Below, piece after piece: positions 16,829-28,011 of a DNA stretch of 64,000 bases. The position numbers and the translations under genes were made by a program. This DNA comes from a virus. Within the stretch, counting starts at the first letter, position 1. Each line of letters starts with the position of its first letter. Below the pieces are notes generated by a model, which ran no database searches, was not told the origin of the DNA, and worked only from the letters and a program-made list of their open reading frames with translations. Where the stretch lies: IMG/VR virus record IMGVR_UViG_3300036770_005084, positions 64,001 to 128,000 of that record. One strand, 5' to 3'.

Positions 16829-16899
16829 GCGGATATGGTGTAGTGGTAACATCTGAGCCTTCCAAGCTCCAGTCACGGGTTCGAGTCCCGTTATCCGCT
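16829..16899 (+). tRNA. tRNA-Gly (anticodon TCC)
   Basis: GCGGATA/TATCCGC acceptor stem, GAGC-ctTCCaa-GCTC anticodon arm, GGTTCGAGTCC T arm; CCA not encoded. Confidence 0.93.
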
Positions 16900-17825: not shown

Positions 17826-17896
17826 TGTGGGTGAGTGTAAAGGTAGCACAGAAGTCTCATAAGCTTCAGGAGGGGGTTCAATTCCCCCACCCGCCA
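17826..17896 (+). tRNA. tRNA with CAT anticodon (Met or Ile2), non-canonical features
   Basis: GAAGT-ctCATaa-GCTTC anticodon arm, GGGGG-TTCAATT-CCCCC T arm, GTGT/GCAC D stem; 1:72 mismatch and G at position 8. Confidence 0.75.
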
Positions 17897-18515: not shown

Positions 18516-18523
18516 TTTTATAT

Positions 18524-18595
18524 GGGACTGTTGCTTATTGGTTAAAGCCCACTGCTTATAACGGTGTGAACAGAGTTCAATTCTCTGCAGTCCTA
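18524..18595 (+). tRNA. tRNA-Ile (anticodon TAT)
   Basis: GGGACTG/CAGTCCT acceptor stem, CACTG-ctTATaa-CGGTG anticodon arm, CAGAG-TTCAATT-CTCTG T arm, discriminator A. Confidence 0.88.
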
Positions 18596-18664
18596 TTGTC
18601 TTGGGAAGACCTAAAACTCATCCTGGTGGAGCCAATGACCTAAAAATTTTAATCTAATTGATAT

Positions 18665-24956: not shown

Positions 24957-25151
24957 ATGACTGTAACAACTAATGATCGTGGTCAACAAAACATGTGGGC
25001 AAAAGAGCCTACCATGTATTACCACAATTATGGTATGCAAACCCCTAACGAATGGAAGGAGACATATAATGGGCGCTGGGCAATGGTCGGTTTTGTTTCT
25101 GGTCTTGTTTCTTATATGGTCACTGGTAATTTCTTCTTCGGGATCTTCTAA
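24957..25151 (+). CDS. hli: High-light-inducible protein with N-terminal extension
   Basis: ETYNGRWAMVGF chlorophyll-binding motif; N-terminal QQNMWAKEP. Confidence 0.88.
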   Translation: MTVTTNDRGQQNMWAKEPTMYYHNYGMQTPNEWKETYNGRWAMVGFVSGLVSYMVTGNFFFGIF

Positions 25152-25238
25152 ATGACCGAACTAATTTTTACTGTGACTAGTGTTGCATTTTTTGTGCTTC
25201 TTGCACATTCAATTAATAAACTATCTGATACATTTTAA
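25152..25238 (+). CDS. 28-aa hydrophobic peptide (MTELIFTVTSVAFFVLLAHSINKLSDTF)
   Basis: ATG directly after hli stop; single transmembrane-like helix. Confidence 0.55.
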   Translation: MTELIFTVTSVAFFVLLAHSINKLSDTF

Positions 25239-25249
25239 GGAGAACTATT

Positions 25250-25369
25250 ATGAAATTTGGTTTTACCCCTGAGGCAGAAATGCTCAACGCACGTCTAGCA
25301 ATGCTTGGTTTTGTCATTGCTGTTGGAACATATCTTACTACTGGGCAAATTATTCCCGGAGTACTTTGA
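25250..25369 (+). CDS. hli: High-light-inducible protein (39 aa, missing from ORF track)
   Basis: MKFGFTPEAEMLNARLAMLGFVIAVGTYLTTGQIIPGVL; AAGGAG SD upstream. Confidence 0.92.
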   Translation: MKFGFTPEAEMLNARLAMLGFVIAVGTYLTTGQIIPGVL

Positions 25370-25372
25370 GAT

Positions 25373-25403
25373 AAACCCTCACTAAATAGTGAGGGTTTTT
25401 TTT
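25373..25403 (+). terminator. Terminator with late-promoter motif CTAAATA across its loop
   Basis: AAACCCTCACT-aaat-AGTGAGGGTTT plus T run. Confidence 0.8.
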
Positions 25404-25406
25404 ATC

Positions 25407-25568
25407 ATGCCAAGAAATCATATAACAAAACAAGAAATAAAAACTTTTGTAGAAAAGTTAAAGACAGAACTATATAACTTAAATTATTATGGATATGGTG
25501 ATCCTAAAGAACTAGCACATAAATATCTCAATAAAGTTATGGATAAAATTCAAGAATATAGGGAGTAG
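25407..25568 (+). CDS. Small hypothetical protein (53 aa, MPRNHITKQEIK...AHKYLNKVMDKIQEYRE)
   Basis: Translated by hand; first gene of the lysis transcript. Confidence 0.65.
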   Translation: MPRNHITKQEIKTFVEKLKTELYNLNYYGYGDPKELAHKYLNKVMDKIQEYRE

Positions 25569-25571
25569 AAA

Positions 25572-26270
25572 ATGCAGATCGATCTACATAACTTCTTTAA
25601 ATACTATGACGAGAAGAATCCAAAGCACGTTGCTGCTGTTGAGCAACTAGAAAAGGATCTTCTCAATTCAGTTAGTAGTCTTATGGAAGATGATGCTAAC
25701 TGGGTTAGAATTTTTAGAAAAAAAGAAGTGATTCCAAAATCAAATATACTTGAAGTTCCTTTTTTCCCACAAACAGATAATTATAGGGATGCAAATAGAA
25801 CTTGTAATTCATCTGCTTGTGCAATGTGTCTTGAGTATTTTAGTCCAGGAACACTTAAAGGACCTAACGGTGATGATCAATATGTACAGAAGGTCTTTGC
25901 AATTGGTGACACCACAGACCATCTAGTACAGACTAAAGTTTTAAATTCATACGGAATTAAATCTACTTTCTCGTATACTCTTACTTTTGCAGATCTTGAT
26001 AGAGAGATTGCTTCTGGCAGACCTATTGTTATTGGAATTCTTCATCGAGGACCTATTTCCAATCCAACCGGAGGACACATGGTAGTTGTGATTGGTAAAA
26101 CTCCATCAGGTGACTATGTTGTAAATGATCCTTATGGTTCACTTAACGATGGTTATACTGGTGCAGTTACTAACGGCAAAGGTGCTATCTATAAAAAATC
26201 TGATTTATCCCGTAGATGGGTTCCTAATGGTAATGATGGTTGGGGAAGAATCTTTGACGTAAAAAAGTAG
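25572..26270 (+). CDS. C39-like cysteine peptidase (0-frame product; N-part of frameshifted endolysin)
   Basis: VPFFPQTDN...TCNSSACAM (Cys), GGHMVVVIG (His), VNDPYG (Asp). Confidence 0.85.
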   Translation: MQIDLHNFFKYYDEKNPKHVAAVEQLEKDLLNSVSSLMEDDANWVRIFRKKEVIPKSNILEVPFFPQTDNYRDANRTCNSSACAMCLEYFSPGTLKGPNGDDQYVQKVFAIGDTTDHLVQTKVLNSYGIKSTFSYTLTFADLDREIASGRPIVIGILHRGPISNPTGGHMVVVIGKTPSGDYVVNDPYGSLNDGYTGAVTNGKGAIYKKSDLSRRWVPNGNDGWGRIFDVKK

Positions 26271-26371
26271 AATCAACATCACAAAAAGTCCCTCAGTGTG
26301 GTGTTGATTTAATTAAAGAATTTGAGGGGTGTCACTTGAATGCTTATCCTGATCCATTAACTGGGGGACTT
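26242..26371 (+). promoter_or_regulatory. Programmed -1 ribosomal frameshift signal
   Basis: SD-like GGGGAAG (26242-26248), heptamer A AAA AAG (26261-26267), 13-bp hairpin 26271-26309, loop complementary to 26323-26328 and 26361-26371. Confidence 0.8.
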
Positions 26372-26746
26372 CCAATCACAATTGGATGGGGTTCTACTAA
26401 AGACTTTGATGGAAATTCATTTAAATTGGGAAGAACTATTTCTCAAGATTATGCAAACAGATTGTTAACGTATGACATTGAAAATAGATTTATTCCTACA
26501 CTACAAAAGATACCTTACTGGGGGGAGATGAATGACAACCAACGTGGGGCACTTTTATCCTTTGCTTACAATCTCGGTGCTGGCTTCTATGGCAACAGCA
26601 ATTTCAATACTATTACCCGCAATCTACGTGAGAAGAATTGGAAGGCAATCCCAGAAACATTAAAACTATATCGTAATCCTGGATCAAATGTTGAAGCAGG
26701 ATTGCTTAGAAGACGTGCTGCTGAAGGTAAACTTTGGAATTCTTAA
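26267..26746 (+). CDS. GH24 (T4-lysozyme-like) muramidase domain, translated via -1 frameshift
   Basis: -1 frame reads VESTSQKVPQCGVDLIKEFEGCHLNAYPDPLTGGLPITIGWG...ALLSFAYNLG...GLLRRRAAE; catalytic Glu (26324-26326) lies upstream of the first TTG (26336). Confidence 0.88.
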   Translation, partial: VESTSQKVPQCGVDLIKEFEGCHLNAYPDPLTGGLPITIGWGSTKDFDGNSFKLGRTISQDYANRLLTYDIENRFIPTLQKIPYWGEMNDNQRGALLSFAYNLGAGFYGNSNFNTITRNLREKNWKAIPETLKLYRNPGSNVEAGLLRRRAAEGKLWNS

Positions 26747-27030
26747 TCGTCTACTTTAGTTCTTAATGCAATTACTGTAGTAAGAATAGTTAGTAAAGTT
26801 TCATACCCTCTTCTTTCAGATTCTTTGCAATCTAAAGGAGGGGGGTTTTTTAATTCTCCTTTTACATTTGCTTTATTAATGGTTCCTGGAACCATGAAGT
26901 TGCAAGCAATAAAGTTAATACCAACAAATCCAACAACGGAACAGCAGACACCAAAGATTAATTTATTTAGTAGTGATCCGTATTTTTTCTCTGATGAATC
27001 TGATGATTTTTGGAAATTATCTTTTTCCAT
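26743..27030 (-). CDS. Small membrane protein
   Basis: Likely ATG at 27030 (MEKDNF...); hydrophobic segments LIFGVCCSVVGFVGINFIAC and LLTILTTVIAL. Confidence 0.6.
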   Translation of the reverse strand: MEKDNFQKSSDSSEKKYGSLLNKLIFGVCCSVVGFVGINFIACNFMVPGTINKANVKGELKNPPPLDCKESERRGYETLLTILTTVIALRTKVDD

Positions 27031-27133
27031 CAGGAACCTTCTATGTTGTCTAACAATAATATGTATATTATACAACAAAGAACAAATGTTAAAATAAGAC
27101 CTAGACCTATACTTACTCCCCAGGGAAATTCAG

Positions 27134-27340
27134 TCATTCCCAATTCTCATATAAATTTCTAAAGTATATATCATATTCTTCTAATGTGGTGTATTTTTCA
27201 ATTTTATTTTCATCGCACCAAAATAGTGCTATTTCATGAAATTTTTCTTTAGACCTTACTTTATTTACACCATAACTTCTTGAAAATGATGACATTATAA
27301 AATGCCAACATTTAATTTTAGAATCATTGTCCTTTTTCAT
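27134..27340 (-). CDS. Hypothetical protein
   Basis: 68-aa ORF in a minus-strand cluster. Confidence 0.6.
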   Translation of the reverse strand: MKKDNDSKIKCWHFIMSSFSRSYGVNKVRSKEKFHEIALFWCDENKIEKYTTLEEYDIYFRNLYENWE

Positions 27341-27518
27341 TTTTATGAATCCAGGTTTTTAGTTCTGAAATATATTCTCTAAGTATTTGTGCTTTTTTTA
27401 AATGCCACTCATCACCATCTTTTAAATATTCTTGAGTATGATTGTCTATTGCTTTTAGTATATTATGTATCGGGGAATTCCATCCTTCACGTATAGGAGT
27501 GTTCCATTCTCGGGGCAT
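27324..27518 (-). CDS. Conserved cyanophage hypothetical protein
   Basis: MPREWNTPIREGWNSPIHNILKAIDNH...; minus-strand ATAAATA at 27540-27546. Confidence 0.7.
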   Translation of the reverse strand: MPREWNTPIREGWNSPIHNILKAIDNHTQEYLKDGDEWHLKKAQILREYISELKTWIHKNEKGQ

Positions 27519-27591
27519 ATATTTTTCAGGAACTATTTTTATTTATTTCTTAGTGATAATATAAATACAAAAAATATAAAATTAATTTACA

Positions 27592-28011
27592 ATGAATCCT
27601 AAGTATAAAATACGAATAAATGAGATAACTAGATTAGAGTCATTCGATACTCTAAGTGATATTATTGTGAGAGTGGAGGTTTTTGTCCAAGCATATATAG
27701 AAGAGAATTCATCTATTTCCACTTCTCGGGTCTTTGTAATTGACTTTTCTGAAGAAGATTATAATTTTGATAATTTTGTATCATATACTAACGTAGATTC
27801 GGACTTAATTATTTCTTGGATTGTAAGTAAATATAATGTTTCTTCATTTGAAGAACTTCCAATAGTTAAGTCTATAACTGAAGAACTTTCTGAAGTTTTT
27901 TCTAGATATGAAAATAAAATTATCGAAACTGTTAACTGGAATGTTAATCTTGATAAAGTTACTATTAAAGAGGAAATTGGAATTTCAACTGGTACTCTAG
28001 GAGAGGTATGA
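27592..28011 (+). CDS. Acidic hypothetical protein (paralog of next ORF)
   Basis: FVSYTNVDSDLIISWI motif; TATAAATA at 27560-27567. Confidence 0.65.
   Translation: MNPKYKIRINEITRLESFDTLSDIIVRVEVFVQAYIEENSSISTSRVFVIDFSEEDYNFDNFVSYTNVDSDLIISWIVSKYNVSSFEELPIVKSITEELSEVFSRYENKIIETVNWNVNLDKVTIKEEIGISTGTLGEV

Follow-up and report, generated by a model that had tools for sequence, protein, structure and literature searches.

Slippery heptamer and covarying hairpin point to a programmed -1 frameshift joining a start-less lysozyme to a C39-like peptidase in cyanophages

The dnaX gene of Escherichia coli, which encodes the tau and gamma proteins, carries the slippery heptamer A_AAA_AAG with a stem-loop a few nucleotides (nt) downstream and a Shine-Dalgarno (SD)-like stimulator upstream, in a cell whose sole lysine tRNA is tRNA-Lys(UUU). 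IS3-family elements such as IS911 and IS150 produce OrfA and OrfAB using an A_AAA_AAG-type heptamer near the end of the upstream open reading frame (ORF), together with a hairpin or pseudoknot. In phage lambda, the tail-assembly chaperone genes for gpG and gpGT use the slippery sequence G_GGA_AAG, usually without strong downstream structure. This tail-assembly chaperone frameshift is a conserved -1 event in phages and yields a short and a long protein at a set ratio (Xu, Hendrix and Duda, 2004, as cited in PMC5506516). For endolysin genes, the only report of a -1 slippery sequence found in the literature searched is a one-line annotation of genes 39/40 of Alteromonas virus vB_AspP-H4/4, in which a putative -1 slippery sequence involves the endolysin gene (PMC5658483). 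Here we analyse a 64,000-nt stretch of viral DNA, positions 64,001 to 128,000 of IMG/VR virus record IMGVR_UViG_3300036770_005084 (hereafter the window), in which a C39-like peptidase gene is followed in the -1 frame by a lysozyme domain without a start codon. A late cyanophage peptidase gene very probably ends here in a programmed -1 ribosomal frameshift cassette of the dnaX/IS3 type, judging from the sequence of the junction and from the conservation of its parts in relatives.

The source record is 155 kb long with a 76% complete rating, and the window covers part of it. Because the window contains hli genes and phage tRNAs, we assign the phage to the T4-like cyanophages. All elements of the junction lie on the + strand. 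The peptidase ORF, taken from the ORF list (25572-26270, 0 frame), encodes 232 amino acids (aa; 25.9 kDa), and its 3' end reads GAC GTA AAA AAG TAG. The heptamer A_AAA_AAG occupies 26261-26267 in the X_XXY_YYZ register of the peptidase frame, and the 0-frame stop TAG at 26268-26270 abuts it and ends the short product. Upstream, the -1 frame is closed by a TGA at 26255-26257, such that the two frames overlap across the slip site only. After this TGA the -1 frame translates as RKKVESTSQKVPQCGVDLIKEFEGCHLNAYPDP..., up to the TAA at 26744-26746; the -1 coding segment proper (26267-26746) comprises 159 codons plus the TAA and encodes a Ser/Thr/Pro-rich linker and a complete GH24 lysozyme. Its catalytic Glu is the GAG codon at 26324-26326, part of an E-x8-D motif whose Asp lies nine residues on. 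Between the TGA and this codon the -1 frame contains no ATG, GTG or TTG. The earliest such codon, and the one picked by mechanical ORF calling, is a TTG at 26336-26338, four codons past the catalytic Glu. A start at this TTG would cost the lysozyme the first seven positions of its Pfam profile (profile position 1 corresponds to residue 20 of the -1 ORF), and the homologous Leu codon is CTA in the related phage S-SRM01; we therefore do not regard it as a credible start. Because the lysozyme domain lacks an initiation codon of its own, it would exist only as a fusion, conceptually a protein of 391 aa (43.8 kDa) whose junction reads ...IFDVKKVESTSQK....

Both domains can be assigned from sequence and structure comparisons. 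The lysozyme segment matches the Pfam family Phage_lysozyme (PF00959; E 2.5e-23) over profile positions 1-125 of 125, and this is the single PF00959 match in the 155-kb record. Post-shift residues 8-156 align to whole solved GH24 lysozymes from the LIKxFEG N-terminal helix onward, namely 9kbq (residues 5-145), 6et6 and P22 lysozyme 2anv (residues 4-139). The full-length profile match and the N-terminal helix with its Glu and E-x8-D place the domain in GH24. The upstream protein matches Peptidase_C39_2 (PF13529; E 2.6e-13) over profile positions 1-143 of 143. Its sequence gave no match in the PDB. An AlphaFold2 model built with 25 homologs is papain-like (predicted local distance difference test score, pLDDT, 83.7), and its best Foldseek matches (E 2e-5 to 2e-3, template modelling score 0.4-0.6) are the phytochelatin-synthase-like Alr0975 (2bu3), the C39 domains of PCAT1 and ComA, 3erv and PeiR; the matches include a C39-like protein of Bacillus anthracis and, in PeiR, a pseudomurein endoisopeptidase. 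Cys78 (25803-25805), His169 (26076-26078) and Asp186 (26127-26129) are invariant across the 25 homologs and would form the catalytic triad, a proposal based on invariance and fold and not on superposition. Profile match, fold and conserved Cys and His identify a papain-like (clan CA) enzyme. The initial annotation of the window, made from its letters, had described the heptamer, the adjacent stop, the upstream TGA, the start-less lysozyme, the TTG at 26336, an SD-like GGGGAAG and the two domain identities; all of these were recovered in our analysis.

In order to examine conservation, we collected relatives from a phage database (S-PM2, S-SRM01, S-CREM1, DSL-LC02/03, ACG-2014f and S-CAM7, with 66-71% nucleotide identity at the locus) and 185 more loci from three IMG/VR scans. 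Isolates and IMG/VR contigs were collapsed to 133 distinct junction sequences. The largest class, with 58 members, is the start-less A_AAA_AAG junction. Two junctions carry an S-CAM7-type U-run, nine combine the heptamer with an own overlapping start of the lysozyme, and 18 have the overlapping start without the heptamer. In-frame fusions account for 14 junctions without the heptamer, all in more distant relatives, for four that keep A_AAA_AAG and for two with seven As. One junction (L112) is of another kind, and the remaining 25 lack a GH24 domain within 300 nt. A +1 arrangement occurs in none of the 133 junctions.

Each of the 58 start-less junctions combines an identical A_AAA_AAG heptamer with a 0-frame stop and a start-less lysozyme in the -1 frame, around which the peptidases share 54-89% identity. 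The stop abuts the heptamer in 52 junctions and lies one codon further on in the other six. No stop interrupts the 159 codons of the -1 frame in any of them, and the lysozymes are 59-86% identical in amino acids. Furthermore, the codon preceding the heptamer ends in A in all 58 (GTA 28, GCA 25, ACA 3, GAA 1, ATA 1); in the same ORFs, GTA makes up 29% of Val codons and GCA 42% of Ala codons. AAA AAG accounts for 6 of the 40 internal Lys-Lys dicodons in these ORFs. Phage S-PM2, sequenced independently and present in three database records, has GAT GCA AAA AAG TAA followed by a start-less -1 lysozyme frame, with a predicted fusion junction ...FDAKKVTSSTSR... (...DAKK|V...). Its lysozyme is annotated as a truncated 'putative lysin' from an internal start.

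Downstream of the heptamer, the window can form a 14-bp hairpin at 26270-26310 (+ strand; minimum free energy, MFE, -16.9 kcal/mol; z score -3.26), and none of 200 shuffled sequences was equally stable. Its 5' arm (26270-26283) lies in the linker, and its 3' arm (26297-26310) lies on the C-G-V-D-L codons at the start of the lysozyme domain. A hairpin is found in 58 of 58 start-less junctions, mostly of 8-16 bp, with a mean free energy of -16.5 kcal/mol and a mean z score of -4.7. Heptamer and hairpin are 0-8 nt apart, except in one junction, where the spacer measures 14 nt. The stems are lineage-specific (AUCAACAUCACA/UGUGGUGUUGAU, CGCCAACUAAC/GUUAGUUGGCG, AGUUCUAUUCC/GGAAUAGAACU and AACUCUACUCC/GGAGUAGAGUU), the 3' arm always lying on the G-V/I-x-L codons that open the lysozyme domain and the 5' arm in the free linker. 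Because the 5' arms of different lineages fell out of register in a single MAFFT alignment of all hairpins, this alignment was replaced by a pair table in coding register and by alignments of sub-lineages. In the table, the Gly codon that opens the lysozyme domain is paired in all 58 junctions, and its wobble base takes part in six types of pair (A-U 23, U-A 19, G-C 10, C-G 2, G-U 2, U-G 2); two more synonymous positions show at least three Watson-Crick types. RNAalifold yielded 11-bp consensus stems with four compensatory pairs each in two sub-lineages. In a chimera control, linkers joined to a foreign lysozyme 5' end folded about 7 kcal/mol worse than the native pairing, whose median rank was 3%. 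Own-start relatives without the heptamer showed no hairpin at this place (z +0.3).

Other candidate signals were examined around the junction. An H-type pseudoknot is possible at 26290-26328 (+ strand), pairing the hairpin loop CCCUCA (26290-26295) with UGAGGG (26323-26328) on the F-E-G codons. The loop and these codons are complementary over 9 nt in this phage, over 5-11 nt across its lineage and over 14 nt in L048 and L050, and the complementarity exceeds that of shuffled loops in most members of this lineage (p<=0.05). Such a pseudoknot is sterically plausible and may be limited to some lineages. We reject a universal pseudoknot, since complementarity above shuffled loops occurs only in this lineage and in L048/L050 and loops of 5-8 nt cannot form one. 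The SD-like GGGGAAG (26242-26248, + strand) ends 12 nt before the heptamer and had been proposed to stimulate the shift. Its GGGG stems from invariant Trp-Gly codons, TGGGG and the heptamer are separated by 15 nt in 53 junctions but by 18 nt in the other five, and the choice of Gly and Arg codons in the GWGR motif is the same in frameshift-dependent and own-start relatives. The comparison thus gives this element no support as a stimulator. An Rfam scan of 25000-27600 returned only sub-threshold chance matches.

The remaining junction classes help to define the protein that the locus would make. The junction of S-CAM7 reads AGA GTT TTT TTT CCA CAG TAG; here too the lysozyme occupies the -1 frame, and its annotation is truncated. 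Two contigs besides S-CAM7 carry GTT TTT TTT CCA CAG TAG with a hairpin of their own at the same place, and in one contig of this group, 88% identical, the hairpin persists although an A-U pair has become G-U. In S-SRM01 the heptamer is retained, yet the lysozyme begins at an ATG of its own that forms part of an ATGA overlap. In ACG-2014f, gp211 is an in-frame peptidase-lysozyme fusion of 405 aa. The natural in-frame fusions, of 395-407 aa, align to residues 1-391 of the conceptual product in a single segment with 56-72% identity, and the family phrog_3617 covers both of its halves. In the ACG-2014f group (L006, L088-L091) and in L111, A_AAA_AAG stays in register within the in-frame fusion and is followed by an immediate -1 stop (AAA AAA GTC TGA), with the hairpin 5-6 nt downstream. 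A -1 shift here would yield a short peptidase, as in the dnaX topology, and the arrangement could be either a relic or a real inverse of the one in the window. Since 14 more distant in-frame fusions lack the heptamer, the inverse, dnaX-like topology is possibly a recent relic.

The two domains are found together in still other forms. Fusions in reverse order, with the lysozyme before the peptidase (phrog_10051), occur in S-CREM1 (L003, 1494-2675) and in L044, L053, L057, L058 and L066; the partnership of the two domains has therefore persisted through changes in their order and linkage. Separate lysozymes coupled to the peptidase by ATGA have an extra N-terminal domain of about 60 aa (MTIKFIDAVKNHKDLPHQNDAW...EILDEFARRYRN; loci L037, L038, L070, L071, L083, L084, L087, L112, L121, L126-L132, L136-L138 and L150). 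Where a peptidase has no GH24 partner, a similar domain opens the gene that follows it (L040-L047, L054, L069 and L085).

Taken together, the locus combines an in-register heptamer, a covarying hairpin at a short spacer and an open, conserved, start-less -1 frame, the features expected of a frameshift cassette. In the proposed mechanism, ribosomes would decode ...GTA AAA AAG, and most would reach the UAG and release the 232-aa papain-like (C39-like) peptidase. Some would pause at the 14-bp hairpin that starts a few nt downstream, allowing the Lys tRNAs to re-pair from A_AAA_AAG to AAA_AAA, and reading would continue in the -1 frame (GUA GAA ...). The shifted ribosomes would cross the linker into the GH24 muramidase and produce the 391-aa two-domain cell-wall hydrolase. 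That the shift takes place, and with what efficiency, we infer from sequence comparison. The 232-aa and 391-aa products proposed in the initial annotation gain support from the heptamer, stop and covarying hairpin of the 58 junctions, S-PM2 included, and from the colinear in-frame fusions; conservation of heptamer, stop and hairpin in homologs, suggested there as a check, was looked for and found in the same 58. A fixed ratio of the two products and recoding-controlled lysis, also proposed there, are weaker details of that proposal, the ratio and its purpose being conjectural.

Several observations weigh against this interpretation. AAAAAAG is common in the AT-rich window (41 copies versus 44 expected), so the presence of the heptamer by itself was rejected as evidence and the case rests on its position and on conservation in relatives. 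The surveyed contigs are related, and the junctions cannot be counted as separate events. The pairs in each hairpin come from the MFE fold of the sequence itself, a procedure biased towards pairing; the chimera and own-start controls answer this in part. The six As at 26261-26266 are known from the assembled sequence and not from reads, and the literature search found no published protein-level study of the locus. Two junction types, L029/L106-L109 and L110, have seven As, with both domains in frame and the hairpin retained. The initial annotation had named seven As in homologs as grounds for abandoning the frameshift: they do occur, in only two of about 60 junction types, and in both the hairpin is retained and the encoded protein is exactly the predicted fusion (...DVKKVE.../...DIKKVE...). 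An identical seven-A sequence was found among these in four metagenomes. These types could be natural fixed fusions or homopolymer variation, or could reflect (repeated) assembly error; whichever their origin, at the sequence level they indicate which protein the locus is meant to make.

The homopolymer also invites explanations in which the ribosome does not shift. RNA polymerase might add an extra A within the A6 run, or an extra U within the U8 run of S-CAM7; either run could support such slippage with an identical protein as the outcome, which is a further point against ribosomal frameshifting, and seven-A variants do exist in genomes. A run of eight Ts is a length at which polymerase slippage is known, and six As are short for efficient slippage. 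The S-CAM7 run is thus the weightiest case for transcriptional slippage, and the A6 runs speak against it. Nor would slippage account for the run always occupying the X_XXY_YYZ register and ending in G, features relevant to tRNA re-pairing and not to a polymerase, or for a covarying hairpin at the distance of a ribosomal stimulator, which is still untranscribed while the polymerase sits on the A run and which is absent where the lysozyme has its own start. We consider transcriptional slippage very unlikely. That the true genome has seven As and encodes a plain in-frame fusion, the six As being a sequencing or assembly error, would agree with the two IMG/VR junction types that have seven As and an uninterrupted fusion. 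This is scarcely credible given exactly six As in 58 distinct junctions from many metagenomes and in the cultured S-PM2, with the stop abutting the heptamer in 52 of them and a specific covarying hairpin following; S-CAM7 achieves the same frame change with a different run, and random errors would not yield such a pattern.

Separate translation of the lysozyme, by a non-canonical start or by termination-reinitiation after the peptidase stop, would give a protein of about 17 kDa beginning within VESTSQKVPQCGV and no fusion. Many relatives indeed couple separate genes by ATGA or GTGA overlaps, and L049 has a GTG of the -1 frame that overlaps the stop. However, no ATG or GTG overlaps the peptidase stop in the 58 junctions, which is where the own-start relatives have their starts; in the window no ATG, GTG or TTG precedes the catalytic Glu, and the position of the L049 GTG is occupied by GTA. 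The Ile codon near the Glu varies among ATT, ATC and ATA, a reinitiating ribosome would have to start in a region occupied by a stable hairpin, and the heptamer and the A-ending codon before it would be left unexplained. Independent initiation is accordingly held to be highly improbable. Finally, the missing start codon, together with the truncated or skipped lysozyme annotations in S-PM2 and S-CAM7, might suggest a decaying pseudogene with the peptidase as sole product. There is next to no chance of this: the -1 frame is open and conserved over all 159 codons in 58 junctions at 59-86% identity, the catalytic motif is retained in what is the single GH24 domain of the record, and no relaxed selection (stops, or a ratio of nonsynonymous to synonymous substitution rates, dN/dS, near 1) was seen in the lysozyme frame across relatives.

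The lysine tRNAs of likely hosts were also examined. In E. coli, decoding of AAG by tRNA-Lys(UUU) alone makes A_AAA_AAG especially slippery. The tRNA-Lys(UUU) of a Prochlorococcus single-cell genome served as BLAST query against that genome and 30 others of the same family. A strong tRNA-Lys(UUU)-like match, one close match per genome, was obtained in 30 of the 31 picocyanobacterial genomes; G014 had no strong one. ARAGORN identified all seven of the matches submitted to it as tRNA-Lys(UUU), and other sampled BLAST matches were Asn, Gly, Thr or Arg tRNAs. A tRNA-Lys(CUU) was found in only two of the 31 genomes, a search in which a divergent CUU tRNA could escape BLAST. The host tRNA-Lys complement thus lends partial support to slipping at the heptamer. 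In the window itself, the phage tRNAs are tRNA-Gly(UCC) at 16829-16899, tRNA-Met(CAU) at 17830-17896 and tRNA-Ile(UAU) at 18523-18596, with no tRNA-Lys.

What the two products would do can be proposed from their domains. The peptidase domain adjoins, couples to or fuses with a muramidase, in either order. This constant pairing, and the likeness of its fold to PeiR and to gamma-glutamyl-cleaving enzymes, suggest by analogy that it cuts peptidoglycan stem peptides. The fusion presumably acts in lysis and not in entry. Some Gram-positive phage endolysins form mixed oligomers by means of internal starts. It is conceivable, though rather doubtful, that frameshift efficiency determines the proportions of a two-form lysin, whose short and long forms have an N-terminal helical module in common and combine in a mixed oligomer, or that efficiency tracks host state through a single hyper-modified tRNA-Lys(UUU). 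If so, a host-state-responsive efficiency would link the timing of lysis to host physiology, and the architectures surveyed, from coupled genes and the heptamer with an own start through the obligatory frameshift to in-frame fusions that retain heptamer and -1 stop and to A7 variants, would form a series of settings of a ratio dial.

On the other side of the lysozyme, a convergent ORF (26746-27078, - strand) overlaps the lysozyme stop and encodes a conserved protein of about 108 aa that contains the hydrophobic stretch LIFGVCCSVVGFVGINFIACNF and whose C-terminus, PPPLDCKESERRGYETLLTILTTVIALR, is near-invariant. It has 495 homologs, all 'hypothetical', and no Pfam or PHROG match. The ORF is syntenic with the lysin in 58 loci (70-87% nucleotide identity), and the annotated S-PM2 gene p158 lies in a different frame from it. 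The protein may be a lysis partner, perhaps holin-like. Upstream, the peptidase gene is preceded by ORF 25389-25568 (phrog_566). A terminator-like hairpin at 25373-25398 (AAACCCTCAC TAAATA GTGAGGGTTT, then a T run) is located between a small hli-like ORF (25251-25370) and this ORF, and the TAAATA in its loop resembles the core of a T4-type late promoter. In genome_contigs, the phage hli gene is matched most closely (80% identity) by L194 (CAZRFN010000182.1), a 1.5-kb contig assigned to an 'uncultured Acidibacter' metagenome-assembled genome, which is most likely a mis-binned cyanophage fragment.

Few classes of phage gene are known to use programmed frameshifting, and a frameshift-dependent lysin would be an addition to them. 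The natural comparative evidence is unusually rich, with about six alternative architectures of one gene pair. The analysis corrects a 20-year-old annotation of the model cyanophage S-PM2, and also those of S-CAM7 and of many metagenomic contigs, in which the lysozyme was called truncated, split or hypothetical; automated pipelines that begin it at an internal TTG or ATG lose the catalytic Glu from the predicted enzyme. Picocyanobacteria of marine and fresh waters are major primary producers, and the production of this hydrolase by their dominant myoviruses bears on the timing of lysis and on carbon release. The cassette is also a compact candidate frameshift element for use in cyanobacteria. 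The mechanism itself is textbook, as in dnaX and the IS3 family. Its use for a peptidase and a lysozyme is apparently unreported: our full-text literature search found no published report of a frameshift attaching a start-less lysozyme to a peptidase.

Compared with dnaX, the locus has the same heptamer, a downstream stem-loop, two products with a common N-terminus and likely hosts with mostly tRNA-Lys(UUU) only. The shift in dnaX meets a stop almost at once and gives the shorter protein, whereas here the 0 frame stops and the shift would add a catalytic domain; the SD-like stimulator of dnaX is likewise unsupported here. In topology the locus is the same as the IS3 family, where the shift fuses a start-less second catalytic domain onto the first protein. 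It differs in that IS3 products are transposases and their frame overlap is usually longer, while this locus encodes a cell-wall hydrolase and the stop abuts the heptamer in 52 of 58 junctions. With lambda gpG/gpGT it would share a conserved phage -1 frameshift that yields a short and a long protein; the gene class and slippery sequence are different, and a strong downstream structure is present here. In vB_AspP-H4/4, unlike here, the shifted product is an internal virion protein, reported without analysis of conservation or structure (PMC5658483). The natural fusions (ACG-2014f gp211, phrog_3617) have the same two domains, the same linker position and an end-to-end alignment with the conceptual product, but, being in frame, need no recoding.

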